Positions 6,346-64,000 of a DNA stretch of 64,000 nucleotides are shown piece after piece. Position numbers and translations under genes: made by a program. Each line of letters starts with the position of its first letter. Position 1 is the stretch's first letter. The DNA comes from an uncultured virus (IMG/VR IMGVR_UViG_2667527737_000002) (taxonomy: Duplodnaviria > Heunggongvirae > Uroviricota > Caudoviricetes): IMG/VR virus record IMGVR_UViG_2667527737_000002; one strand, 5' to 3'. The notes beneath the pieces are model-generated. The model searched no databases, was not told where the DNA came from, and saw nothing but the letters and a program-made list of their open reading frames with translations.

Positions 6346-6528
6346 CTAGTCCAGTACACCTTTCAGTGGATAACATTCAGCTTTCACGTGTTGCTCTTCT
6401 GCAGCTGCTTTGCAGTCATTCTCACTGTCGTAAACGCCGAGCAGGACATCCTGATTACCGCCCGTCAGCATGCTTACGGTGAGGACTAGGGCGAATAGGC
6501 TTCCAGTCATAAAGTACCTGTTAACCAT
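6346..6528 (-). CDS. DUF1482/YebW-like protein, possibly shortened by a premature TAG
   Basis: FALVLTV..DVLLGVYDSENDC; frame continues HPAGFTVQM after the TAG. Confidence 0.6.
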   Translation of the reverse strand: MVNRYFMTGSLFALVLTVSMLTGGNQDVLLGVYDSENDCKAAAEEQHVKAECYPLKGVLD

Positions 6529-6649
6529 TCGTAGGTTCCTGATTTAATCACGACTTCCTGATTGTCAGCGTCACATGGAGTTTCTTCTCCCTGACCCTCA
6601 TAAATACAAAGCAGGTCTATAACCTGCACATCCCTATATTTTTTAACCA

Positions 6650-6745
6650 TTAGAGAATCTCCCACAGCGCGCAGAAGAGCGCGATCCAGATGAAGAGCCC
6701 AATAACTGCCGAAATGACCATGGCTCTGATGCCTTGCTTACTCAT
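6650..6745 (-). CDS. 31-aa single-TM peptide MSKQGIRAMVISAVIGLFIWIALFCALWEIL
   Basis: Read by hand; GAGGTG RBS; hydrophobic core. Confidence 0.55.
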   Translation of the reverse strand: MSKQGIRAMVISAVIGLFIWIALFCALWEIL

Positions 6746-7691: not shown

Positions 7692-8729
7692 TTAACTCTT
7701 CATTAAACGATACAAAACCCTACTGGAAGTAACGTCTACACAGTGTGAAGACACTTTTCTGGTTCTTCCGTCACTATAGACCTTTCTGCAATCTGTCGTA
7801 TTTTTTTCAGGATCAAGTTTTAAATGAAGGTTAGCACCATCTACTGGTTTTATCCACAGTATTTTGCCATCTTCATCTGGACCTAAATAACGCCAATCCA
7901 AGCATCCATCAGAAATTTTAGCTAAGTCATTAATAACACTGAGAACGGACTGGTATCTTTCATTTGGATCGTGGTGAAGACACTTATTGATTATCTTAAC
8001 AAGAGCTGGATGTATATGAAAAGGGTAGTTCCTCGGAGGAAACTCTCCCTGTGCAAAGCGAGATTGTAAACGTTCTTGATCTGTTTCAGAGAAAAATTCT
8101 TGAACAGCATTCTGGAATTCTGCTTCACCTACGGCCATTCTATAAAGAGTCATGCCAGCTTGATATATATCATAAGTAAAATTGAAGCGTTTTTGAGAAA
8201 GTATTTCAGGTGGTACGTGTGTCGTATAGAATAGACGAACACTAGAAAGGCCATCGCCATCTATCTTGGCTGAAAGTCCGAAGTCAGTTAGAAGGGCTTC
8301 ATCACGGTCAGATAACATTATATTATTTGGTTTGATGTCAAAATGCATCAATCCCTTAGAGTGAATGTGATTCAGTCCGCTTAAAAACTGAATTCCGTAT
8401 CTAATTATTTCGCGACTTGTTAGATTCTTTTGTGCCATTAATGAACTTAGCGATCCATTTGAATAAAATGGCATGGCAATATAAATATTTTTATCATCTC
8501 TTGCAGCATAGCAAATTTGCACAATATTTGAATGTGCACTAGCATAAAGCAACCTTGCTTCCTGGAAAAATTCTTCTGGTGCTATTGTTGCTTGATCTAC
8601 TTGTTTAATTACAATCTCGTTATCAAGGTGTTCGTCATGCGCCAAAAATACCTTTGAATTTTGGCCTTCTTGACCAATTTCCTTTAAGTATTTGAAAGAC
8701 ACATCAGCTTTTTGGTATGGTGTAAGCAT
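7692..8729 (-). CDS. Hanks-type Ser/Thr(/Tyr) protein kinase, non-RD
   Basis: IVIK, alphaC Glu (FQE), HFDIKPNN, DFG, PPE, DIYQAG. Confidence 0.93.
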   Translation of the reverse strand: MLTPYQKADVSFKYLKEIGQEGQNSKVFLAHDEHLDNEIVIKQVDQATIAPEEFFQEARLLYASAHSNIVQICYAARDDKNIYIAMPFYSNGSLSSLMAQKNLTSREIIRYGIQFLSGLNHIHSKGLMHFDIKPNNIMLSDRDEALLTDFGLSAKIDGDGLSSVRLFYTTHVPPEILSQKRFNFTYDIYQAGMTLYRMAVGEAEFQNAVQEFFSETDQERLQSRFAQGEFPPRNYPFHIHPALVKIINKCLHHDPNERYQSVLSVINDLAKISDGCLDWRYLGPDEDGKILWIKPVDGANLHLKLDPEKNTTDCRKVYSDGRTRKVSSHCVDVTSSRVLYRLMKS

Positions 8730-14183: not shown

Positions 14184-16270
14184 GACAATCTGAAATCATC
14201 GTTGATAATTTTGCTGGCGGCGGCGGCGCCTCGACGGGCATCGAGCTGGCGATTGGTCGTAGCGTGGATATCGCGATAAACCATGACCCGAACGCTGTAG
14301 CGATGCATACCACCAATCACCCGGACACGCTGCACTATTGCGAATCGGTTTATGAAGTCAGGCCAAAAGTTGCGACCGCCGGCCGTCCGGTAGCGCTGGT
14401 GTGGTTTTCACCAGACTGCCGTCACTTTTCAAAGGCGAAAGGAGCTAAGCCTGTCGAGAAAGCGATTCGCGGACTGGCTTGGGTGGTTTTGCGCTGGGGG
14501 CTGGATGTTAAACCCCGAGTGATGAAGCTGGAGAACGTTGAAGAATTTAAAACGTGGGGGCCGCTGCTCGCTGGTGAAATGCGTCCAGACCCTGCCCGTG
14601 CTGGCGAAACTTTTGAGGCATTCATTGGCATGCTGACCACAGGCATTTCAGCGGATCATCCGGCGCTGGCCGAATGCTGCGAATTTCTGAATATTTCCCT
14701 TGATAGCGAGGATGCAGCACGGCTGGTAAACGGTTTGGGTTACACCGTTGAGTATCGCGAGCTCCGCGCATGTGATTATGGTGCGCCGACCATCCGTAAG
14801 CGTTTCTTCATGGTGATGCGTTGCGATGGGAAGCCGATTGTATGGCCGGAAGCCACTCATGGAGATCCGAAATCACCGGCGGTGCTAGCTGGCAAATTGG
14901 CACCATGGCGCACAGCTGCAGAATGCATCGACTGGTCCATCCCAGCCCCGTCGATTTTTGGCCGCAAAAAGCCGCTGGCGGAAAACACGCTCCGGCGCAT
15001 TGCCCGGGGAATCCAGCGCTTCGTTATCGACAGTGCCGAGCCGTTCATCGTCAAGTGCAACCACACAACGACGAAAGGGCAGTACGATTTTATTCGCGGG
15101 CAGTCGATGGCTGGGCCGCTGCAGACGATTACGAAAACCCATGGTTTTGCGGTCGCGGTACCACACCTGACCAAGTTTCGCACCGGCGCCACCGGGCAGC
15201 CAGTCACCGAACCGGTACCAACGGTAACCGCAGGCACGTCCAGACGACCAGGAGGGAATGGTCATGCGTTGGGGATTGTTGAGGCGGGCCTTGTCCCATT
15301 CCTCGCTGGTAACGGTGGAAGCGAATACCAGGCTAAACCGCGCCCGCTTGATAAACCTGCACACACCATCCTGAAAGAGTCGCGCGCCTGTGTAGTCGCT
15401 CCAGTTATCGCCAGGCAATTCGGTGCCAGCGTAGGGCACCGTGCCGACGAGCCAAGCGCAATCATCACAGCGGGCGGTGGTGGTAATTCGCAACTGGTTG
15501 TGCCGACGCTCATTCAAATGGGATACGGAGAACGGCCAGGGCAGGCACCACGCGTGCCCGGACTGGATAAGCCTCTGGGAACCGTTGTTGCTGGTGGCGG
15601 GAAACATGCTGTAGTTGGTGCATTTCTGGCAAAGCACTATGGCGGCAACTACACCGGGCCCGGCGTGGTGCTGGATGAGCCTGCTCATTCAGTAACGACT
15701 GTCGATCATCACGCGCTGGTTACTGCTCAGATTGTTGGTGTTGGCGGTCATGCTGGGCAGAGCAGGCCGCGAGACGTTAGCGAGCCACTGCAGACCATGA
15801 CGACAAAGGCTGATGCTGCGACGGTCACGTCCCACTTGATAAAACTCCGCGGCACCTGCCGTGATGGCCAGACAACTGACGAGCCGGTGCCGACTATCAC
15901 TGCCGGCGGGCAGCACGTAGGGGAGGTTAAAACAACTCTGGCGGTCGAGGACTATGACGAAGAGCGTGCGCAGCAGGTGCTGGCGTTCCTGCAGCAATAC
16001 TGCGGGGAGGATAGCACCGGGCTGGTGGATATCGGCGGAGTGACTTACCGCATTGTCGACATCGGCATGCGCATGCTGCAGCCGCATGAGCTCTACCGCG
16101 CGCAGGGCTTCCCTGAGTGGTATATCATCGACCAGGATTACCGAGGTGTGAAGTATGCGAAGGATAAGCAGGTTGCGCGTTGTGGTAATGCCGTTCCGCC
16201 CCCGTTCGCTGAGGCGCTGGTTAGGGCTAATTTACCAGAAATTTGCTCGATTGAAAAAAATGTAGCTTGA
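14180..16270 (+). CDS. DNA cytosine-5 methyltransferase
   Basis: FAGGGG, SPDC, ENV, RKRFF, GNAV motifs. Confidence 0.92.
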   Translation: MRQSEIIVDNFAGGGGASTGIELAIGRSVDIAINHDPNAVAMHTTNHPDTLHYCESVYEVRPKVATAGRPVALVWFSPDCRHFSKAKGAKPVEKAIRGLAWVVLRWGLDVKPRVMKLENVEEFKTWGPLLAGEMRPDPARAGETFEAFIGMLTTGISADHPALAECCEFLNISLDSEDAARLVNGLGYTVEYRELRACDYGAPTIRKRFFMVMRCDGKPIVWPEATHGDPKSPAVLAGKLAPWRTAAECIDWSIPAPSIFGRKKPLAENTLRRIARGIQRFVIDSAEPFIVKCNHTTTKGQYDFIRGQSMAGPLQTITKTHGFAVAVPHLTKFRTGATGQPVTEPVPTVTAGTSRRPGGNGHALGIVEAGLVPFLAGNGGSEYQAKPRPLDKPAHTILKESRACVVAPVIARQFGASVGHRADEPSAIITAGGGGNSQLVVPTLIQMGYGERPGQAPRVPGLDKPLGTVVAGGGKHAVVGAFLAKHYGGNYTGPGVVLDEPAHSVTTVDHHALVTAQIVGVGGHAGQSRPRDVSEPLQTMTTKADAATVTSHLIKLRGTCRDGQTTDEPVPTITAGGQHVGEVKTTLAVEDYDEERAQQVLAFLQQYCGEDSTGLVDIGGVTYRIVDIGMRMLQPHELYRAQGFPEWYIIDQDYRGVKYAKDKQVARCGNAVPPPFAEALVRANLPEICSIEKNVA

Positions 16271-16311
16271 AATAAGATGGCTTTATATTCCATAGCATTT
16301 GGAGAAGAAGT

Positions 16312-17160
16312 ATGAGTTTTACGAGTAAAGAAACCGAAGAGTATGAACATTATGAGTCTTATTACTTTTGTAATATTATCAGAAACGTACTTAACAACCA
16401 GAGTGCTTACATGAGAGGTCTTAACGATTACCATGGGGATGGTCGTTCTATTTTTTTTGAAAAGCCCTTCCCAAAATGGTCTCATTTCCATGATTTTATT
16501 GAGTTCATAGTGGATAGTGTGTACGCAGAAAAATTAACTCATGACAACCTTGATGAACAATTAAATGCATTTAAACAATATTCCACTTCTTTTTCTGAAC
16601 CAGTCGATGCAGCAATAGTTTCCTTTGCGAGTTTGAGACGGTATTTTCTTGCATATTTAAGTGATAATGATAAAAATTTGAAGGAAAGTTGCATCTCTGA
16701 TCTCGAAGATTTCTTATGTTTATTTTATGAAGGGGAATTATATAAGAAATATCTGGAGCAAACAATCAAGGAAATCTTTTATATATTGTTTGGGGATCGC
16801 TCTGTGCTTAGGTTATACAATGAGATGATCGCTGAGTCACGTGGGCTTGATTTCAATCCAGATGATTTCAATGTTAAAACAACCACTAAGAATGGATACC
16901 TCAAAAGATTAACGATTCCTAAATGGGTACAGAAGGCAGTTTACCATCGAGACAAAGGCCGATGTGTTATATGTAAAAAAGACCTTACGGGGTTGGTTAA
17001 TATATATAATAAAACTAATTACGATCATATTGTACCATTGGCGCGGTTTGGAATTAACGATGTGTCCAATATTCAATTACTTTGTGATACATGTAATCAA
17101 CAGAAAAAAGCGAATAACAATAACTCTTCTAAGGATTATTTTCCTTGGTACCCGATTTAA
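16312..17160 (+). CDS. HNH endonuclease domain protein (AT-rich)
   Basis: RDKGRCVIC, DHIVP, NIQLLCDTCN. Confidence 0.88.
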   Translation: MSFTSKETEEYEHYESYYFCNIIRNVLNNQSAYMRGLNDYHGDGRSIFFEKPFPKWSHFHDFIEFIVDSVYAEKLTHDNLDEQLNAFKQYSTSFSEPVDAAIVSFASLRRYFLAYLSDNDKNLKESCISDLEDFLCLFYEGELYKKYLEQTIKEIFYILFGDRSVLRLYNEMIAESRGLDFNPDDFNVKTTTKNGYLKRLTIPKWVQKAVYHRDKGRCVICKKDLTGLVNIYNKTNYDHIVPLARFGINDVSNIQLLCDTCNQQKKANNNNSSKDYFPWYPI

Positions 17161-17357
17161 TGTTTTATTATTAAGGGCAACTGATTTACGGTAATCAATT
17201 GCCCATAATACACCTGCCAGCCTGAACAACTGACACCTGCTATCCGGCGCCAAGTGGGGACACATGGCGCACAAAACTTCAAAGCAACACCTGTCACCGA
17301 TGGCGAAATCCATCGGCGATTTTTTCATTCAGCGTTTGACCTCTGCTAAGGTGAAGC

Positions 17358-17474
17358 GTGAACTTCCCTCAAGAAGGCATAAGGTTGCATAACGGAAATT
17401 TCGCAACTATGTGTAAGAACCTGAAGCTGTTTCTTTCCAATGGCGTTACCTCCCGACTGATTCTCAAATCGTGA
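17358..17474 (+). pseudogene. 5' remnant of ybcN/NinB-like gene
   Basis: VNFPQEGIRLHNGNF...ILKS* resembles YbcN N-terminus as recalled. Confidence 0.55.
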
Positions 17475-54816: not shown

Positions 54817-55365
54817 ATGCTGATTGGCTATGCACGGGTCTCTACAGGGGATCAAAACCTCGATTTACAGAAAAACGCGCTGATCCGCGCAGAATGTGAG
54901 CTGGTTTTTGAAGACACGGCCAGTGGGAAGAATGCCAGGCGGCCAGGGCTAAAACGCGCGATGCGACGACTCCGATCGGGGGACGTGCTGGTGGTGTGGA
55001 AGCTGGACAGGCTGGGCCGCAGCGTGCGCGATCTGATTACGCTCGTGTCGGAGCTACAGGCGCGCGGGGTGAATTTCCGCAGCCTAACCGACAGCATCGA
55101 TACCAGTACTCCAGCAGGCCGCTTTTTTTTCCACGTCATGAGCGCCCTGGCGGAAATGGAGCGCGAGCTGATCGTCGAGCGTACCCGAGCGGGGTTAGCC
55201 GCAGCGAGAGAGCAGGGGAGAGTAGGCGGGCGCCGCCGGGTAATGACCACTGAGGTTGTGGAGCGGTGTCGCAGAATGCTGGAGAACGGCGCTACCCGGC
55301 AGCAGGTAGCAGATGTCATCGGGGTAGGAGTGAAGACTATTTATAAATATTTTCCTGCCCAATAA
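54817..55365 (+). CDS. Serine DNA invertase (Pin/Gin/Hin family)
   Basis: GYARVST, LDRLGRS, C-terminal HTH. Confidence 0.95.
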   Translation: MLIGYARVSTGDQNLDLQKNALIRAECELVFEDTASGKNARRPGLKRAMRRLRSGDVLVVWKLDRLGRSVRDLITLVSELQARGVNFRSLTDSIDTSTPAGRFFFHVMSALAEMERELIVERTRAGLAAAREQGRVGGRRRVMTTEVVERCRRMLENGATRQQVADVIGVGVKTIYKYFPAQ

Positions 55366-55520
55366 AGCGGTCCACCGGCGAGTTGGTTGCGGTGTTTGAC
55401 GGTGATTAACGGGCTTTCTTATACGAAATATGCTTAAGACACTCATCTTTTAATGTGACATTAAGCGGTGGTGGTATAGAATTATCTAAACTGGACATAA
55501 CATGTTAATAAATAGGGGGT

Positions 55521-56141
55521 TTGATGTCAGTCTCTAAAGATTTCCTGCTTTCGGTATATGAGCGGTGCAATGAACATTTGAAAGAACAATCGACCAAGCG
55601 TGATCAGGCAATAGCTTTTTATTTGGTTGTTATATCGTTTTATTTCGGCTCATACTCAGCAATTAGCAAGTTATTGGTAAGTCCGTACTCCCCTATTTTT
55701 TTTAATGTGGTTATATGTCTGATTAGTGGTATGACAATCAGAACGTTGTCTGGTTTACGTTCATGGCATATGCAATATGCCAACTCGGCGTTAGCGCTTA
55801 ATAAAGTGATATCGAAAAACATCTTTGAATTAGATGCTCTTAATTTAGAGATTAAGTCTTTCTTCGATAAGAAAGAAAAGGAATATCATGAAATGTCGCT
55901 TGCTAAAATGTTCTCTGGTATTGAAAATCGAGTCATTCTTGGGATGACTCTTATTTCCGGGTTTCCGGTTGTGATGTTAGTTAAAGAGGTTATGTCTTTA
56001 CTCAAAGTAAGTAATAAAGAAATCATAGTGTTAGTTGAGTGCGCGTTTTACCTGGCATATGTTGTATATTATTTCTACAATACTATAATGATAATTCGCG
56101 AGTCAGCAAATCATAAAACTTGGATTGTAAATTTTGAATAA
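55521..56141 (+). CDS. Four-TM membrane protein
   Basis: Two pairs of hydrophobic helices; overlaps NUDIX start. Confidence 0.8.
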   Translation: MMSVSKDFLLSVYERCNEHLKEQSTKRDQAIAFYLVVISFYFGSYSAISKLLVSPYSPIFFNVVICLISGMTIRTLSGLRSWHMQYANSALALNKVISKNIFELDALNLEIKSFFDKKEKEYHEMSLAKMFSGIENRVILGMTLISGFPVVMLVKEVMSLLKVSNKEIIVLVECAFYLAYVVYYFYNTIMIIRESANHKTWIVNFE

Positions 56142-56613
56142 GATTATTGTTGAAAATCAATACGTGACGGTGTTTTTTAATGACTCCGGGCACTTGCGCA
56201 TAAGCCAAAAGCATGGAGGTGTTGTTGTTATTCCTGAGTGTAATGGAAAGTACGCATTAATTCAACATTCAAGAAATGGTGTTGTGCTTATTGAGTTTCC
56301 AAGAGGGTTTATTGAAAATGGTGAATCTCATATAGATGGTGCTGAACGCGAACTTAGAGAAGAATTGAATCTCGTTTCGGTCAATAGCTATTTATTAGGT
56401 GAATTGGTTACTGATTCAGGATTGATTACTGACAATGTTCGGGCTGTTATTTGTGAAGTGAAAGATACATCTCAGTTATTATTGCAATCAAGCGAGGGTG
56501 TTATAGGTTGTGATTATTATACTTATGATGAAGTTATTGAACTTGTAAAGAATGGGAAGGTTAAAGATAATTTCACCTTGGCCTCATTAATGCTATTACA
56601 GGCTAACAGGTAA
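56134..56613 (+). CDS. NUDIX hydrolase
   Basis: GFIENGESHIDGAERELREELNL Nudix box. Confidence 0.92.
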   Translation: MNKIIVENQYVTVFFNDSGHLRISQKHGGVVVIPECNGKYALIQHSRNGVVLIEFPRGFIENGESHIDGAERELREELNLVSVNSYLLGELVTDSGLITDNVRAVICEVKDTSQLLLQSSEGVIGCDYYTYDEVIELVKNGKVKDNFTLASLMLLQANR

Positions 56614-56841
56614 TGTTTCACAGGCAACCCTATGGCCGTTTAATTTGTTGAACGTTTCAGCGACCGTATACAAAAACTCGTCAAGAGCTGTTTACTATGG
56701 AGTCAGTGTTATAGGTATGGGGGCATAATGCTGGATTTGCACTGCTCGCACAACCGTCAAACAGTTCAGTATAGAAAACGCTCGTTACTCATTACATCAA
56801 TGTGTTACGTCAATGGCGTAAATTGATAGTCAGAGCCTATA

Positions 56842-56883: not shown

Positions 56884-58793
56884 GTGCGCCGGGAGACCGG
56901 TTAGAGATCAAGGGGTGAAAGTCCCCGACCATTGAAGGACCAGCAATCCACAAGGTCCCCGAGTCATGCGTTGCATACCGCGAGGTATGGGGCGAAGCGT
57001 TGACAGGGGTGTTGACAGGCCAGCCATTGAGCCACGAAATGTATATTAAATTACCGGGTGCCGACGTTGTACTGTTAACGGAAGGCAACATCATAGGGTG
57101 CGATACTGCGAGTGCCACATGGACCCGGCGGGGTCTGAGACCCTGGCATGTCAATACGATCTCTACGCGGGAACCGGGAGATCTCCCCTCTGACCATCTG
57201 CCAGTGTCGGAGATGGCCCGCACCGGGAAGACGAGGAGTCATAGCCGGTGATGTACGGAGAGGAGAAGTCGGACTCGCTCATAGTAGCGGCGAAGCAGGC
57301 GAACAACCCGAAAGGAGCGGAGTCAGTGGAGCGAAGGAGCGGGGCCAAGGGGAACGCGGAACAGCCACACATGCGCCGGACACAGAGCCGGGAAAGCATG
57401 TCACAGAGGCTGTCACGCGTGCGGGAAGCTGCGAAGCAGCGGAAGAAAGAACGGTTTACAGCATTGTTCCACCTGCTGACAGTCGAAGCACTGGAAGCCG
57501 CATTCCTCTCCCTGAGCAGGAAAGCGGCCGCCGGAGTGGATGGCATCAGGTGGATGGACTACGCCGGAAACATGAAGAACAACATAACAGATCTGCACCG
57601 GAGGCTACATCAGGGCAGCTACAGGGCGCAGCCCGGCAGGCGTCACTACATCCCAAAAGCGGATGGAAAACAACGCCCGCTCGGCATCGCCTCGCTGGAG
57701 GACAAGATCGTCCAGTATGCGCTGGTGAAAATCCTGAACGCAGTCTATGAAAACGACTTTATGGGGTTCTCATACGGGTTCAGACCCGGGCGAAGCCAGC
57801 ACGATGCACTGGACGCACTGGCCACAGGGCTGGTACGCACTAACGTAAACTGGGTACTGGATGCCGACATCAGTCAGTTCTTCGACAGGGTGAGCCACGA
57901 ATGGCTGATCAGGTTCACAGAGCATCGGATCGGCGACCGGAGGGTAATCAGGCTCATACGTAAGTGGCTCACAGCCGGGACGTCGGAGGAGGGTCAATGG
58001 CGAGCAACGGAGGAAGGCACCCCACAGGGTGCGGTCATCTCACCGCTGCTGGCAAACATATACCTCCACTACGTCTTCGATCTGTGGGCGCATCAGTGGC
58101 GACGTCGCTATGCCACAGGCAATGTGGTAATGGTCAGATACGCCGATGACATCGTCATCGGGTTCGACAAACGATACGATGCCCGGCGCTTCCGTATAGC
58201 CATGCAGCGCAGACTGAGGGAGTTCGGACTCACGGTTCACCCGGAGAAAACCCGTCTGATGGAGTTCGGCCGCTTCGCTGCCGAAAACCGTGCCATCAGG
58301 GGAAAAGGCAAACCAGAAACGTTCAACTTCCTCGGGTTCACGCACATCAGCGGGAAAGATCGCAACGGCAGGTTCATGCTGATACGAAAGACCCGCCGGG
58401 ATCGGATGACGGCAACTCTGAAAGCCATCAAAGACGGTCTGCGAAGGCGCTGGCATTACTCAATCCCCGAACAGGGAAAATGGCTCAGGAGAGTGGTTCA
58501 GGGATACCTGAACTATCACTCGGTACCGGGCAACTTCCCCACCATGCAGAAGTTCAGGACACACGTAACAAACCTCTGGCGCCGGGCGCTCAGGCGCAGG
58601 AGCCAGAAGGATGATACGACCTGGACGAAAGCAAACAAACTGGCAGCCGCATGGCTACCAAGGGTTCGGGTTCTTCATCCATGGCCTGTGGAGCGGTTCA
58701 CCGCCAGACACCCGAGGCAGGAGCCCGGTGCGTAAATCGCGCACGCCGGGATCTGTGCGGGGGGTATCCGGTAACGGGTATCCCTACCGCGAC
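56884..58793 (+). mobile_element. Group II intron
   Basis: 5' GTGCG; domain V GAGCCCGGTGCG...CACGCCGGGATC near 58721; 3' ACCGCGAC. Confidence 0.92.
57248..58735 (+). CDS. ltrA: Intron reverse transcriptase/maturase, no endonuclease domain (start may be 57398)
   Basis: RPLGI, GFRPGRS, GTPQG, RYADD, FLGF. Confidence 0.95.
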
Positions 58794-58814: not shown

Positions 58815-59234
58815 ATGCAGTTCTACACGCCCGTTGAGTTACGTCAGATCATGCTGCTCCCGTTGTACAGCGACCTTGTGCAATGTGGTTTTCCAAGTCC
58901 TGCGCAGGATTACGTTGAGCAACGTATCGATCTGAACGAGTTGCTCGTTAACCACCCCAGTGCGACGTATTTTGTCAAAGCCGCCGGCGACAGCATGAAA
59001 GACGCCGGCATAGGGGAGGGTGATCTTCTGGTAGTGGATAGCTCAAGGACAGCAGTTCATGGTGATATCGTTATTGCTGCTGTGGATGGGGAATTCACCG
59101 TTAAGAAGCTGCAGCTGCATCCGCGGGTTCAGCTTAACCCAATGAACCCTGCATATTCGCCAATAGTCGTCGGTAGTGAGGACACTCTCGACGTGTTCGG
59201 AGTGGTTACGTATATCATAAAATCAGCTGGCTAA
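58815..59234 (+). CDS. umuD: UmuD (Pol V accessory subunit)
   Basis: [20 protein letters not shown]; 139 aa. Confidence 0.95.
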
Positions 59235-59235
59235 G

Positions 59236-60501
59236 ATGTTTGCGCTTTGTGATGTGAATTCATTTTACGCATCGTGCGAGACCGTATTTCGTCCTGACCT
59301 GAAAGGGCGTCCGGTGGTTGTTCTGTCAAACAACGACGGCTGTGTGATCGCCCGCTCGCCGGAGGCGAAGCCTTTCGTCAAAATGGGTGAGCCTTATTTC
59401 AAGCAAAAGGACATGTTTCGCCGGCACGGTATTATCGCGTTTAGCAGCAACTATGAGCTTTATGCCGATATGTCCAACCGAGTGATGACAACGCTGGAGG
59501 AACTGTCTCCACGCTGCGAAATTTACAGTATTGATGAGGCATTTTGCGATCTGACAGGTGTTCGTAATTGTCGCGACCTTACCGACTTTGGCCGGGAAAT
59601 TCGCGAGACGGTTCTGCGCAGGACGCACCTCACGGTCGGTGTCGGCATAGCCCAGACTAAAACCCTGGCAAAGCTGGCCAATCACGCGGCGAAACAGTGG
59701 CAGCGGCAGACCGGAGGAGTGGTGGATCTATCTAATCAGGAACGGCAAAGGAAGTTGATGGCTTTGCTTCCGGTGGATGAAGTCTGGGGGGTCGGGCGCC
59801 GCATCAGTAAAAAACTGGAGGCAATGGGCATTAAAACAGTGCTTCAACTGGCGGATACCGATATCCGTTTTATCCGGAAGCATTTTAATGTGGTTCTGGA
59901 GCGAACAGTGCGGGAGCTGCGCGGCGAGCCATGCCTCGGGCTTGAGGAGTTCGCACCGTTAAAGCAGGAAATCGTTTGCAGCCGTTCGTTCGGCGGTCGT
60001 ATCACGGAATACCATGAGATGAGGCAGGCAATATGCAGCTATGCGTCGCGCGCAGCGGAGAAACTCCGTGGCGAGCATCAGTATTGTCGGTTCATCTCAG
60101 CGTTCGTTAAAACCAGTCCCTTTACGCTTAACGAGCCATACTACGGAAACAGCGCATCATTAAAGCTGCTAACGCCAACCCAGGACAGCAGGGACATAAT
60201 CACCGCGGCGACGAAATGCCTCGATGTAATCTGGCGAGACGGACATCGCTATCAGAAAGCAGGTGTGATGCTGGGGGATTTCTACAGTCAGGGCGTGGCA
60301 CAGCTCAACCTGTTTGACGATAACGCACCGCGGAAAAATAGCGGAAAACTGATGGAGGTCCTGGATCATCTGAATGCCAAAAATGGGAGAGGGGCGCTGT
60401 ACTTTGCCGGCCAAGGAATCCAGACCGCCTGGCAGATGAAACGAGAAATGCTATCCCCGCGCTATACTACGAGGTTCTGTGATCTGCTCAAAGTTAGATG
60501 A
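59236..60501 (+). CDS. umuC: UmuC (Y-family polymerase)
   Basis: DVNSFYASCE, SNNDGC, YSIDE, SPRYTT. Confidence 0.97.
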   Translation: MFALCDVNSFYASCETVFRPDLKGRPVVVLSNNDGCVIARSPEAKPFVKMGEPYFKQKDMFRRHGIIAFSSNYELYADMSNRVMTTLEELSPRCEIYSIDEAFCDLTGVRNCRDLTDFGREIRETVLRRTHLTVGVGIAQTKTLAKLANHAAKQWQRQTGGVVDLSNQERQRKLMALLPVDEVWGVGRRISKKLEAMGIKTVLQLADTDIRFIRKHFNVVLERTVRELRGEPCLGLEEFAPLKQEIVCSRSFGGRITEYHEMRQAICSYASRAAEKLRGEHQYCRFISAFVKTSPFTLNEPYYGNSASLKLLTPTQDSRDIITAATKCLDVIWRDGHRYQKAGVMLGDFYSQGVAQLNLFDDNAPRKNSGKLMEVLDHLNAKNGRGALYFAGQGIQTAWQMKREMLSPRYTTRFCDLLKVR

Positions 60502-60538
60502 TTCGACTATTAACGGTAGTGGTCATGCTGCTACTGCG

Positions 60539-60562
60539 GTCCGCTTAGAGTGAGAAGCGGAC
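60539..60562. repeat. Palindromic site R1
   Basis: GTCCGC-TTAGAGTGAGAA-GCGGAC. Confidence 0.75.
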
Positions 60563-60656
60563 ATCGTGACTCGAACAGGATTCATGCTAAGATAAGGCTT
60601 TGATGAAAAGGCATTTAATTGCTAGAAGTTGGCGAAAACAATGAAAGGGATACGTA

Positions 60657-60917
60657 ATGTTTACCCCAGAGTTTATAAATGAAGAACGCGGCGAATTTCT
60701 CCTTGTGGCCAACCACGCTCTGGCATCACCGGAATCGATAAAACTCAGTATTGCATACAATTTTGCCAGAATATGCTGGGGGCTATCGCAGCTTCCACCG
60801 CACATTCAAACTTGCCGGGTCGTCTATGACATCAGAGGGCAATCCATCCCTGATCAGGTTCAGGCCCAGATCAGGCAAGCACTTGAGCAGATAGCCATGG
60901 TGGAGTTTAAGAGCTGA
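60657..60917 (+). CDS. Hypothetical protein, 86 aa
   Basis: RBS; TGATG-coupled to next ORF. Confidence 0.65.
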   Translation: MFTPEFINEERGEFLLVANHALASPESIKLSIAYNFARICWGLSQLPPHIQTCRVVYDIRGQSIPDQVQAQIRQALEQIAMVEFKS

Positions 60918-61153
60918 TGGGACTTCAGTTAATTATCAAAGCAGAACGTAACAAGATAGAAAAAGCATTGGGATCGCTGACACCAGAGTGTGAAATATTC
61001 CCGGTCGCTGAAGGCCTTTTCGGTATTTCCATTCCGGAACGAAGTCTCTCATCCGCGGGTGAATCTGCAGTTCTAAAAAAACTTGAACCACTCACACGTT
61101 TTGACCTATGGCAGGGAGCCTGGCAAGAACCCAGGCGACGTTGGTTTTGGTGA
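60917..61153 (+). CDS. Hypothetical protein, 78 aa
   Basis: Coupled to previous ORF. Confidence 0.65.
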   Translation: MGLQLIIKAERNKIEKALGSLTPECEIFPVAEGLFGISIPERSLSSAGESAVLKKLEPLTRFDLWQGAWQEPRRRWFW

Positions 61154-61257
61154 GTTTCAGCGCTGAGTGAGATGGGGAAGTCGCATTGCGTGCTGGGCGC
61201 AGATCGCCTGTCTTCATTAGCAAAGCGGCTTAAGGCTCTCAGTACTCAGATATGAAT

Positions 61258-61281
61258 GTCCGCTGCTGGCACAGGGCTGCT
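61258..61281. repeat. Palindromic site R2 (right arm degenerate)
   Basis: GTCCGC-TGCTGGCACAGG-GCTGCT. Confidence 0.65.
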
Positions 61282-61299
61282 GTTGCAGCCCTGACAACC

Positions 61300-61902
61300 T
61301 TAGACTTCAATCGATTCAGAGATCTCTAACGCATCATCGACTTCGATGCCCAGATAACGGACTGTGCTTTCCAGTTTCTTATGGACCAACAGAAGTTGGA
61401 TCACCAGGAGATTCTTGGTTTTCTTGTATATCAGGTAAGGTTTTGTTCTTCTCATGGAATGTGTACTGTAAAGCGAAGCTTCGAGACCAAGCTTTTCTAC
61501 CCACCCATGAAAAATTCGGCTGTATTGTCGGGTTGATATGTGCCGGTTAGTTCCGATCCGAGACCGAAACAAGAAGTCTTTACTGTGCAAATTGCCAAGC
61601 TTTATCAACGCAGCAACAACTTCTCTTGTCCCTTTGGTTATCTCGAATTGCACAGGGCTACCGGTTTTCTGTTGCAGCATCGTTGCTCTGCTTGAAACCG
61701 AACTACCATATGCAACATCAGATACTTTGAGGTTCATCAGATCACAGCCTCGTAGCTTACTGTCTAAGGCCATATTGAACAGAGCTAAATCACGCGTTTT
61801 ACCTTCCAGTTCAAGCCGGATTCGGATCCCCCAGATATGAGATATCTGAAGTAGTTTTTTTTGGCCTATGATACGGTCTTTATTCCACGGTGACGTGTTC
61901 AT
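61300..61902 (-). CDS. Short tyrosine recombinase (catalytic domain only)
   Basis: PWNK, SKLRGCDL, THSMRRT, LLVH, TVRYLG. Confidence 0.9.
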   Translation of the reverse strand: MNTSPWNKDRIIGQKKLLQISHIWGIRIRLELEGKTRDLALFNMALDSKLRGCDLMNLKVSDVAYGSSVSSRATMLQQKTGSPVQFEITKGTREVVAALIKLGNLHSKDFLFRSRIGTNRHISTRQYSRIFHGWVEKLGLEASLYSTHSMRRTKPYLIYKKTKNLLVIQLLLVHKKLESTVRYLGIEVDDALEISESIEV

Positions 61903-61941
61903 ACTCAAATCTCCTGCAATATGGGAGATTTGAGTATGGTT

Positions 61942-61965
61942 GTCCCTTATGAGCGAAGAGCAGAA
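61942..61965. repeat. Palindromic site R3
   Basis: GTCCCT-TATGAGCGAAGA-GCAGAA. Confidence 0.6.
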
Positions 61966-62050
61966 GTTCGAAGCGTCTCTAACCTAGATTGAATTCATTT
62001 TTTTTACAAATTTTATCAAAATCAATCTCTAAATATCATCACACATGTTT

Positions 62051-62923
62051 TCATCCGTAATATTCATGTTTTGATCTGTGCTTATTTTCAATAATTTCTA
62101 TTATCGCTGATTCTTTCCAAACAATTGCTAGGTCGGGATAAATATTACTTCCGGAATGTATTAATTGAGAACGTCCTGAATAGACTCCTCCAAAGGTATA
62201 GCATTGTGACATAATCATATCGTCAATGTTTTCCTTTCCTTTCGGCAAAGTAAATCCATTTGATTTTATAAATACAGCAGAGCCTGACATGCCAGTTTTA
62301 GTTGTAGCTGTATCAATAAAATACTTAGGTAGATTGTCAATGTTTACATCATGTTCAGAGGCTACACTACCTCTTTTCCATATTGGTAGATTCCCCCCGG
62401 CAACCATACCTAGAGGATAACCGATAAGGAATGCATCCATACCAGCTTTAATATCAAAATCTTCCAAATTCAGCTCATTTGAATTAACAGGTAAGATAGC
62501 AAATCCATTTTCTTTTAAGGTTTTCATGGTGTCGTTAACAGGTATTGCAATTATATCGACCTTGTTCTCATGGTTTGGGTGTTCAAACCATATAGGTGCA
62601 TATTCACCATTGTCCTCCTCGTATAAATTAAGTTTAAGAACATTTCTCCATGATAAATAAAAAGAGTTACCTACAGCCTCTATTCTTTTAGGAAGATAAA
62701 GAGTCATGAGGTTAGGAACTGATAAATTGATGGTATCTAATGGCTTTCCGGTTAAGGAGTTTCTTCCTGTAACGTTATGCCAGTTTGTTATTAAATAGAT
62801 CTTCTCATTAAAACAATAAAAAAATGCAGTGGCTGTACTCAGAATTGTTAACTCATCGCTGTCAGCATTCCCTCTACACATTTCTATCTTAAATGATGTT
62901 AAACTTAAATTGTTAATTGACAT
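62051..62923 (-). CDS. Trypsin-like serine protease (AT-rich, no signal peptide)
   Basis: ATAFF, TNWHNV, VDII, GYP, GMSGS. Confidence 0.85.
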   Translation of the reverse strand: MSINNLSLTSFKIEMCRGNADSDELTILSTATAFFYCFNEKIYLITNWHNVTGRNSLTGKPLDTINLSVPNLMTLYLPKRIEAVGNSFYLSWRNVLKLNLYEEDNGEYAPIWFEHPNHENKVDIIAIPVNDTMKTLKENGFAILPVNSNELNLEDFDIKAGMDAFLIGYPLGMVAGGNLPIWKRGSVASEHDVNIDNLPKYFIDTATTKTGMSGSAVFIKSNGFTLPKGKENIDDMIMSQCYTFGGVYSGRSQLIHSGSNIYPDLAIVWKESAIIEIIENKHRSKHEYYG

Positions 62924-63060
62924 TATAACCCCTTATTTTAACTTCTTGGTGCCGGCGGATAAAACAGCAATATAAACACTACGTGAAAGTAAATTGCGAA
63001 TGATTATAGGCCAAACCAATGATAATGTCACTTGACATTAAAGATTGCAGCGTAAAGAAC

Positions 63061-63084
63061 GTCTGCTCTTGGCACATTGCAGAC
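63061..63084. repeat. Palindromic site R4
   Basis: GTCTGC-TCTTGGCACATT-GCAGAC. Confidence 0.75.
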
Positions 63085-63085
63085 A

Positions 63086-63772
63086 TTACGTATTTATTGG
63101 GGGCTCGATCGCCTCAATTAATTCTGGCCCCTGATTTTTAACATTACCCACGGCGCGCGTCACGGCGTGCCAGATAAACTTGTCGGCGGGCACTGCTCCG
63201 TCGGTGGCTATCTCTTCGGCTTCCTTCCCGCCTATATCCAGGCGCATCCATTCGCGTGCGGCTTCCGGCACCAGGACGAGTGATCGGCGGTCGTGAATAT
63301 CGACCAGCCCTTGGTCAGCAGCTGCAGTCACTATCAAAAATCCTTCAGCTTCGTCGCCGCGTTGAAAAGGTACACTCCCGATCGCCGCCATGAAGATGGG
63401 CTTGCCGTCTTTACGGTGGATGAAATAGGGCTGCTTCTTGTCACCTTCACGCTTCCACTCAAACCAGCCGTCTGCAAAACAAATTGCTCTCCCGTGCTGC
63501 CACAGGGATTTAAACATCCTGCTGCTGGCAGCAGTCTCAACCCGGGCATTAGTCGATGGGGGTTTATCCCACCACCCAGGCGCATAACCCCAGTGGATCG
63601 GATCGAGGTGCAACTGTTCGTCGCGTTCGCTCAGGAGCAAAACTTTAGTCCCCGGTGCCACGTTGTACCGGCCGATTGGTTCGGGGTCATAAGCGATATC
63701 CCGCTCGGCCTCTTCAGCCAAATAAGCCTGGTACTCTTCACGGGTTTGTGATTGAGCAAAGCGTCCACACAT
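63086..63772 (-). CDS. yedK: SRAP / YedK abasic-site protein
   Basis: MCGRF, RYNVAP, NARVET, GWFEW, IHDR. Confidence 0.93.
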   Translation of the reverse strand: MCGRFAQSQTREEYQAYLAEEAERDIAYDPEPIGRYNVAPGTKVLLLSERDEQLHLDPIHWGYAPGWWDKPPSTNARVETAASSRMFKSLWQHGRAICFADGWFEWKREGDKKQPYFIHRKDGKPIFMAAIGSVPFQRGDEAEGFLIVTAAADQGLVDIHDRRSLVLVPEAAREWMRLDIGGKEAEEIATDGAVPADKFIWHAVTRAVGNVKNQGPELIEAIEPPINT

Positions 63773-63885
63773 GGTTACCTCCAGTCTTCAGAATGAAAGT
63801 ATAGAAGGAGAGACTCTGGACGATGGGGTTGTATTAGGAATAGCGACATTCGTCATCAATCGCACTTGGCCTACTGATGGCGAAT

Positions 63886-63909
63886 GTCCGATATGATAAA
63901 ATAGCGAAC
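63886..63909. repeat. Palindromic site R5 (degenerate)
   Basis: aatGTCCGA-TATGATAAAATA-GCGAACatt. Confidence 0.5.
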
Positions 63910-64000
63910 ATTACCCCTTTTACTAACATGCCTATTTAGCCGAGCACTACTTTCGTTGTAGTCACGACCTTACCAGCAGGCTACATACTGGCACAATTAG

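Follow-up and report, generated by a model that had tools for sequence, protein, structure and literature searches.

Gene Cassettes Bounded by Two Types of 24-bp Palindrome beside a 200-aa Tyrosine Recombinase: A Candidate System for the Exchange of Anti-Phage Genes

Introduction

Among described genetic elements, the integron is one of the closest counterparts of the array discussed here: in both, a tyrosine recombinase gene stands beside an array of units of one to three genes, separated by sites that are imperfect palindromes. Integron 59-base elements are classically described as two inversely related simple sites with a short variable stretch between them. An array of comparable layout is located at positions 60539–63084 of a 64,000-nucleotide stretch of DNA (hereafter the window) from an uncultured virus of the class Caudoviricetes (IMG/VR record IMGVR_UViG_2667527737_000002). 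It is composed of a two-gene cassette (A), a unit carrying the gene of a 200-aa tyrosine recombinase, and a protease cassette (C), all bounded by 24-bp palindromic sites designated S1–S4. This is probably a cassette array whose units would be moved by double-stranded, site-specific exchange between like sites, performed by the 200-aa recombinase. Comparison of sequences reveals a family of such sites, a regular array grammar, breakpoints at the sites, and a cargo rich in defence genes.

Three other systems invite comparison. Like the enzyme considered here, the FimB and FimE recombinases measure about 200 aa; a separate core-binding domain is largely or wholly missing from them, and their substrates are short inverted repeats. 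Nothing in the window points to an invertible promoter switch. In engineered cassette exchange, a cassette placed between a pair of incompatible lox or FRT sites, alike in their arms but not in their centres, can be swapped without co-integration. The array may be likened to this arrangement by analogy, although the latter is a laboratory design employing Cre or Flp. Finally, the pdif modules of Acinetobacter plasmids comprise one to a few genes each and are bounded by short core sites that alternate in orientation or type, and a given module recurs in several replicons; both features are shared by the present array. The pdif sites are described as dif-like and ascribed to the host XerCD, whereas the sites of the present system show, by eye, no likeness to dif, form two-site junctions between modules in place of one shared site, and are accompanied by a dedicated small recombinase that travels along.

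The question of how defence genes are exchanged has been raised for related elements. A 2026 survey that examined defence hotspots in thousands of P2/P4 elements (PMC13586616), in the part available, regards it as unknown how exchange with other elements takes place, and names transposons, homologous recombination, and illegitimate recombination as possible routes without deciding for any of them; that part mentions neither sites of this kind nor a small recombinase. A hotspot preprint (10.1101/2024.10.15.618418) does not mention a recombinase, palindromes, or site-specific events. Among the papers listed by a literature search, extended to full text for the arm sequences, no title or abstract describes the recombinase together with the sites.

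The Site Family and Its Two Types

The initial annotation of the window reported five copies of GTCYGC-N12-GCRGAC with an identical 12-nt spacer. Two of them, S1 and S4, match this pattern exactly (at 60539 and 63061, against 0.02 matches expected), whereas S2 (61258), S3 (61942), and S5 (63886) deviate from it by three, three, and two mismatches, respectively, and the sameness of the spacer is one of length only. With up to three mismatches allowed, the window yields 88 matches against 69 ± 9 in shuffled sequences, close to what chance provides, and thus the pattern alone fails to single out 61258, 61942, and 63886. The site is better described as 9-6-9 than as 6-12-6, and it was scored accordingly: two inverted 9-bp arms (14 arm positions) with the consensus GTCCGCTnn and nnAGCGGAC flank a 6-bp centre, giving 24 bp in all.

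The division of the spacers into two types stands, with TGGCAC in S2 and S4 and GAGYGA in S1 and S3. Read in the orientation of the recombinase gene, the centre is GTGCCA in type I and TCGCTC in type II. In the same orientation the type II consensus, derived from 88 distinct contexts, is aaY-GTCCGCTnnTCGCTCAnAGCnGAC, and that of type I, derived from 71 distinct contexts, is GTCCGCTnTGTGCCAnnAGCGGAC-Rtt; the central positions are 92–100% conserved in these contexts.

Four of the five copies in the window (S1–S4) are members of this widespread family (Table 1). S1 has no mismatch in its 14 arm positions and one in the six positions of its centre. In S2 and S3 the arm facing the recombinase gene is degenerate: in S2 it overlaps a hairpin at 61272–61293 (−12.6 kcal/mol, z −4.0), the degenerate form of this site being seen in the loci L001, L010, and L017 as well, and in S3 it reads GTCCCTT. 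Since the outer arm and the centre are kept beside recombinase genes, S2 and S3 represent conserved recombinase-flanking forms and not chance matches. S3 is the boundary common to the recombinase module and the protease cassette. The claim of a fifth site is less secure. S5 has only two mismatches in the 14 arm positions, a score of two or fewer being reached in the window by S1 and S5 alone (0.28 per shuffled window), and its flanks are similar to the outer flanks of real sites; its centre, however, departs from both types, and no comparator was found there because the homology of the relatives of the neighbouring SRAP gene ends short of it. A function of the sites as terminators was considered and rejected, as none of the five was called an intrinsic terminator. 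Only S1 folds well, and S3 alone does not fold.

Table 1. Coordinates of the sites and genes of the array and of the adjoining backbone genes in the window.
Feature	Position	Strand	Remarks
umuD	58836–59234	+	Pfam Peptidase_S24; left backbone
umuC	59236–60501	+	Pfam IMS, IMS_C, DUF4113; left backbone
S1, complete type II site	60539–60562	−	centre GAGTGA on + strand; outer boundary of cassette A
Small-gene pair, cargo of cassette A	60657–60917; 60917–61153	+	86 aa and 78 aa; open reading frames
S2, type I site	61258–61281	−	centre TGGCAC; just downstream of recombinase gene
Tyrosine recombinase, 200 aa	61303–61902	−	PF00589; catalytic domain only; starts MNTSPWNK
Perfect 15-bp stem, 9-nt loop	61900–61938	−	covers GGAG ribosome-binding site and ATG of recombinase
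S3, type II site	61942–61965	−	centre GAGCGA; 40 bp upstream of recombinase start codon
Cassette C cargo, trypsin-like serine protease, 290 aa	62051–62923	−	Pfam Trypsin_2, phrog_7688
S4, complete type I site	63061–63084	−	centre TGGCAC; ends 1 bp before SRAP stop codon
SRAP (SOS response-associated peptidase)	63086–63772	−	PF02586 at 4.4e-50; right backbone
S5, site-like palindrome	63886–63909		good arms, AT-rich non-canonical centre

Order of Sites and Cargo around Recombinase Homologues

The arrangement of the sites was followed in DNA fetched around homologues of the recombinase, comprising 77 genome loci and 59 viral loci. Enrichment of the motif near these homologues, a check proposed in the initial annotation, proved to be strong: a relaxed scan found 138 sites in the 2.08 Mb of these loci, compared with 3 in shuffled sequence and 0 in positions 1–52000 of the window. 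The orientation of the sites agrees with that of the recombinase gene in 163 of 180 cases, near-duplicate loci being counted.

The sites follow a strict grammar. Cargo, consisting of one to three open reading frames (ORFs) on either strand, is located inside I-to-II intervals (n = 67; median length 1868 bp, range 620–5634 bp). Adjacent cassettes are linked by II-linker-I junctions, 23 of which are distinct; the start-to-start spacing of the two sites is 42 bp in 16 of them and 39–41 bp in the remaining seven, and with the semi-conserved 18-bp linker the conserved junction measures 66 bp. The recombinase gene is always found in a II-to-I interval, where the outer arms are intact and the arms on the gene side are degenerate, and the type II site, present in six of seven mapped loci, lies about 57 bp upstream of the matched recombinase start. 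In the orientation of its recombinase the window reads S4(I)-protease-S3(II)-recombinase-S2(I)-two genes-S1(II), and the same I-cargo-II grammar is seen in seven other loci (L010, L012, L014, L015, L017, L090, and L117).

The II-linker-I junction is a feature in which the array resembles an integron, being built, like a 59-base element, of two inversely related simple sites around a short variable stretch. It might be supposed that the same recombinase acts on the junction folded as a single strand, type II pairing with type I except at two fixed mismatches in the centre, and that replication resolves a one-strand exchange. Type II indeed approximates the reverse complement of type I, the centres matching at four of six positions when inverted and at two of six when read directly. 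Yet no covariation is seen between the variable positions of the II and I sites of a junction (35 of 92 complementary; shuffled partners give 32.7 ± 3.8, and 332 of 1000 shuffles score at least as high). Moreover, each 24-mer is a self-contained palindrome, as befits a double-stranded core site, S3 by itself forms no fold, and breakpoints occur at both II and I sites and not at one end only. On this balance a single-stranded, integron-like route is quite unlikely.

The array differs from integrons in other respects as well. The enzyme is of 200 aa, without a core-binding domain, and the site sequence is another one. Both ends of a cassette show breakpoints, and the gene of the recombinase is embedded in the array with a site on each side. 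The cargo is found on either strand, and the protease cassette has a promoter-like site of its own, in contrast to the promoterless integron cassettes, which have one orientation and a shared promoter. By eye, neither the 24-mers nor the junctions seem to contain the core of attC (R''-L''...L'-R', GTTRRRY core), and a comparison by eye with the E. coli dif site (11-6-11) shows no likeness.

In the Qin-like prophage of E. coli (L001), positions 6440–6720 contain a further, decayed copy of the 3' portion of the recombinase gene together with a degenerate type I-like site. This stretch sits between two cargo genes and looks like the remnant of an earlier recombinase unit.

Breakpoints of the Modules

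In a megablast search with positions 60400–64000 no record spans the whole stretch; the matches fall into three separate blocks. The first, 60539–61273, with the two small genes of cassette A, is 91% identical to the end of a P2-like E. coli prophage, where the pair lies between the same site types. The recombinase block, 61255/9–61956/69, is 92–94% identical in the 26 E. coli matches listed, e.g., in the Qin-like prophage. The protease block, 61942–63088, is 95% identical in the best 30 matches, all of them plasmids, out of 1030 matching records, 920 of which are from Klebsiella; in one examined plasmid it is situated amid NACHT and CBASS genes. E. coli records matching any part of 60400–64000 number 923. 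The host elements of the three modules are thus a P2-like phage, a lambdoid prophage, and a Klebsiella plasmid, with no common flanking homology.

The ends of homology lie at the sites. Between the window and the corresponding loci L001, L002, and L003, identity is lost at or inside S1, S2, and S3; in the alignment with the E. coli locus L002 the divergence point is the outer end of S1, the shared block beginning at 60539. Two other loci, L117 and L012, are 96% identical over a block that starts inside one type I site, continues through the cargo, the type II site, and the linker, and takes in the following type I site; on its left side they differ at positions 8, 9, and 12 of the site and agree from position 13 on. 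Metagenome contigs carrying the recombinase module enter unlike sequence before 61258 and after 61956 or 61966. The divergence points of metagenome contigs are 61258, 61942, 61956/61966, and 63088, and one contig of 1164 nt contains precisely 61942–63088. In the metagenome run X16 the depth over the recombinase module exceeds that of the adjoining DNA 10- to 100-fold. The proposal that cargo boundaries in other genomes coincide with the sites is therefore borne out in that the modules match separately and their blocks end at sites, and the view that the sites mark where modules are swapped is supported by these alignments.

It is also worth mentioning that in the Klebsiella variicola plasmid (L003, 6950–8024) about 55 bp separate the end of a transposase gene of the IS110 family from the protease cassette's type II site, directly after which homology to the window stops. 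IS110 elements may target these palindromes.

The 200-aa Recombinase

The recombinase was initially annotated as a minimal tyrosine recombinase of about 200 aa with the R-HxxR-H-Y set and no arm or core-binding domain, a description that is supported. Its start is the ATG at 61902. The PF00589 domain is recognised at residues 36–186 with 54.6 bits against a cut-off of 27.1, and the 25 homologues compared, which have 58–96% identity to the copy in the window, all retain R51, K79, H148, R151, H174, and Y183. The family profile, compared with the PDB, matches only residues 131–278 of XerD, i.e., its catalytic half. A Foldseek search with the AF2 model (pLDDT 85.5) places XerA and XerH at the top, followed by Tn1549 Int, Cre, IntI, and lambda Int. 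Homologues are present in Alteromonadales, Pseudomonas, and Burkholderiales.

Assignment to a named family was attempted with NCBIfam. The best match is to archaeal XerA, with 44.9 bits against a cut-off of 220; XerC (35.4 against 335) and XerD (17.3 against 330) remain far below the equivalog thresholds, as does XerS. The FimB/E invertase model NF007371 gives 17.5 bits against a cut-off of 222, hence the enzyme is not a FimB/FimE-type member. Identity with XerC/D or FimB/E is ruled out by these scores. Among the NCBIfam matches at E up to 0.01 there is no integron-integrase model, in agreement with the earlier statement that the enzyme is not IntI. The name IntKX was likewise discarded, as it denotes the unrelated integrases of conjugative elements.

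The start of the gene is covered by an inverted repeat (I7) whose arms are 100% complementary (Table 1). The predicted RNA fold has −27.9 kcal/mol (z −5.2), and none of 200 shuffled sequences is equally stable.

The N-terminal residues 1–14, encoded at 61882–61902, contain the motif P-W-N-K followed by G-Q, which is invariant in the homologues and lies in a segment predicted to be disordered (pLDDT below 50). From the model, this motif might stand in for the core-binding domain in contacting DNA. Recombinase pseudogenes with internal stops were found in four loci (L019, L023, L024, and L129) and in several genome matches, and judging from these sequences decay of the recombinase seems common.

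Cargo and Anti-Phage Genes

The content of the intervals named in the initial annotation, i.e., the two-gene pair, the recombinase, the trypsin-like protease, and SRAP, was confirmed by ORF and Pfam analysis. The proteins of cassette A have no match in Pfam, NCBIfam, PHROG, or PADLOC, and a search of the ESM Atlas with the 86-aa protein returned scores at noise level and no lead. The protease of cassette C matches the PADLOC candidate PDC-S45 at 1.8e-18 and is a candidate anti-phage gene on the strength of this similarity. Over the protease block the GC content drops from 45–55% to 33%, and the cassette carries its own sigma-70-like promoter-like site (11/12 at 63031–63003).

Across the arrays, 121 distinct ORFs were collected from I-to-II intervals. 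With short ORFs, near-duplicates, and ORFs overlapping recombinase genes left out, 92 were scanned with PADLOC together with two proteins from the provirus G001, discussed below. At E up to 1e-5, matches were obtained for 31 of these 94 proteins, a rate that stands without a control set, and 63 gave none. The matches include Lit, SIR2-HerA, DUF4297-HerA, Old, Septu PtuA/PtuB, PD-T7-1, and PD-T4-3, as well as dGTPase, dCTPase, AbiGi, and JukA. It appears that this little-studied, site-bounded system transfers anti-phage genes among phages, plasmids, and chromosomes.

Association of the Recombinase with the Sites

The link between enzyme and sites was surveyed in 301 genomes of Enterobacteriaceae species, with the recombinase accepted at E up to 1e-20 and the sites with at most one mismatch. 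The recombinase was found in 36 genomes and at least one site in 125, a control with the reversed pattern giving about six matches in total; of the 36 genomes with the recombinase, 32 also contain sites. Locally the association is strong: in three recombinase-carrying genomes, 12 of the 41 sites are found no farther than 7 kb from a recombinase gene, in about 0.3% of the DNA, which amounts to an enrichment of approximately 86-fold. The association extends to homologues of about 60% identity from other orders and classes of bacteria: the exact outer arm GTCCGCT is present in the 220 nt upstream of the gene at 9 of 53 loci, compared with 16 of 870 control windows. We infer from these sequence data that the 200-aa recombinase acts on the sites.

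Several results weigh against this interpretation. Neither a circle nor an excision junction appeared in the sequencing runs compared, which were contig sets, a kind of data unable to reveal rare forms, and one raw-read run (X21) in which none of this DNA was present. Sites occur in 93 of the 265 genomes in which the recombinase was not detected, and a profile search of five site-rich genomes, with 14–29 sites each, found no member of the recombinase family. With sites lacking the enzyme in so many genomes, the enzyme is not needed for persistence of the arrays, and a strict one-to-one link fails. The co-occurrence at the genome level could partly reflect the load of mobile elements per genome. 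Beside distant homologues the full two-arm site shows no clear enrichment over control windows. S4 and its L003 counterpart differ at 4 of the 10 positions of the cargo-side arm despite 95% identity of the cargo, a pattern not expected of a clean crossover at the centre. As the arms are conserved in all sites, the block ends cannot be placed to a single base. In the enzyme encoded in the window, the substitutions P17L, R166L, and G173V, the last adjoining the catalytic H174, affect positions at least 90% conserved in the 25 homologues, and this copy may be impaired. All sampled words of the array are present in 14 isolate runs from 10 studies (2013–2022), some of them possibly the source itself, and in the lineage of the window the array looks static or frozen.

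Some of these results would be accommodated if the palindromes were conserved boundary or regulatory sequences, the modules were swapped by homologous or illegitimate recombination, and the recombinase were a passenger. The abundance of sites in genomes without the enzyme, the block ends that resist placement to single bases, and the constancy of the array across many isolates of the lineage all suit such a state of affairs, and the conserved 66-bp junction could act as a short homology. It leaves without an account the 92–100% conservation of the centres, the strict two-type grammar, the fixed orientation relative to the recombinase gene, and the invariable position of that gene between II and I sites with the outer arms kept. 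The failure to call any of the five sites a terminator, with good folding confined to S1, and the movement of cassettes among elements without common flanking homology also speak against it, so that this possibility is judged unlikely.

Arrays in genomes that lack the recombinase family could also mean that another enzyme, XerCD or some other recombinase, uses the sites, and that the 200-aa protein has a different role, e.g., inverting or locking its own segment. The Acinetobacter pdif modules, ascribed to the host XerCD, offer a precedent. As noted, the sites, compared by eye, show no likeness to dif; their concentration within 7 kb of recombinase genes and the recurrence of the outer arm beside homologues of about 60% identity in other bacterial classes point to the 200-aa enzyme instead. 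Another recombinase as the agent is therefore very improbable. It should be added that arrays without an enzyme outnumber those with one in integrons, too.

Proposed Mechanism

Double-stranded recombination between like sites is the most likely process; it agrees with the 9-6-9 layout, with the conservation of both centres and the fixed orientation, and with breakpoints at I and II sites alike. The recombinase would bind the arms, and strand exchange at the centre would join I to I and II to II. Recombination of directly repeated like sites would release the cargo together with a II-linker-I junction as a circle, for whose re-entry any like site could serve, whereas paired I-I and II-II exchanges between two replicons would result in an outright swap of cargo. 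The amount of recombinase would be kept low by the hairpin that covers its ribosome-binding site and start codon. We infer the pairing of like sites and the circular intermediate, as well as the action of the enzyme at the sites, from the sequence patterns described above.

The initial annotation had proposed a gene-cassette capture and shuffling system distinct from integrons. The swapping of modules at the sites and an enzyme other than IntI agree with this proposal; the inclusion of SRAP among the cassettes (see below) and the 6-12-6 anatomy have to be abandoned.

The Z/fun Locus of Phage P2

Inverted repeats flanking the Z/fun locus in P2-like coliphages were reportedly described by Nilsson, Karlsson, and Haggard-Ljungquist in 2004 (Mol Biol Evol 21:1). 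In P2 (NC_001895) a type I site is located at 15335 (one arm mismatch, none in the centre) and a type II site at 17432 (four arm mismatches, none in the centre), and the two enclose fun(Z) at 15675–17261. No further site was found in the 33.6 kb of P2 at the same threshold, apart from the palindromic site at 15335 read on the opposite strand. The Z/fun locus shows the same site types and the same phenomenon as the array in the window, and the P2-like E. coli prophage that holds the cassette A pair has it at the place equivalent to Z/fun.

In P2-like backbones an extra 10-bp inverted repeat (AATCTGACAG ... CTGTCAGATT) is present outside the 24-mers, at 7990–8000 and 8745–8754 in L002 and at about 15325 and 17456 in P2 (L146). 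It may belong to the phage's own landing site.

The Insertion Slot between umuC and SRAP

The array lies between the convergent genes umuC and SRAP. In the closest relative compared, the provirus G001, umuDC is kept at 90% identity and SRAP at 79%, the homology on the SRAP side beginning at 63073, and the slot between umuC and SRAP is occupied by a single unrelated AT-rich cassette of two genes (422 aa and 135 aa). Its limits are a type II site at one end and a split type I-like site at the other; no recombinase of the 200-aa family was found in G001. In a prophage of E. coli D9 the slot is empty: umuC abuts SRAP with an 8-bp overlap, and no site-like sequence is present at the joint. At 75–79% identity this prophage is too distant for the insertion event to be reconstructed. 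Additionally, one metagenome contig joins 60467 to 63129. On the evidence of G001, D9, and this contig the array is an insertion between two backbone genes, as had been proposed. The view of SRAP as a cargo unit, on the other hand, is not upheld: since SRAP abuts umuC in D9 and is kept beside a variable slot in G001, it belongs to the conserved backbone.

Some further features of this region deserve mention. In G001 a 24-nt insertion splits the centre of the type I-like site by SRAP (L009, 4831–4880) and may be the scar of an aberrant event. Just upstream of umuD, at 56884–58793, the window contains a group II intron (Rfam RF02005 at 56918–57143, 186.6 bits) with a reverse-transcriptase ORF at 57248–58735; G001 has uninterrupted sequence here, and the intron is therefore an insertion peculiar to the lineage of the window. 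Farther upstream (54817–56784) a small serine recombinase gene of the resolvase type (54817–55365) is followed by a stretch of about 35% GC (55521–56613) encoding an 8xMP-like membrane protein and a NUDIX protein. The provirus G001 keeps the resolvase and has about 134 bp in place of the approximately 1.4 kb found in the window. This region may be a second cargo slot, linked to a serine recombinase (compare PMC13552941).

Significance

There is about an even chance that the array exemplifies an integron-independent system distributed across Proteobacteria, in which a minimal recombinase and two incompatible 9-6-9 sites carry out a natural two-site exchange, and that this is the missing mechanism of anti-phage gene swaps. 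The recombinase is notable in itself, being unusually small and having two apparently orthogonal sites. The site sequence would serve as a signature for the discovery of new defence genes. The fast movement of defence genes between unrelated mobile elements is an open question, for which a dedicated recombinase with defined 24-bp sites would supply a concrete mechanism. If the proposal is true, it would explain how anti-phage genes are swapped among P2-like phages, lambdoid phages, plasmids, and chromosomal islands despite the lack of common flanking homology.

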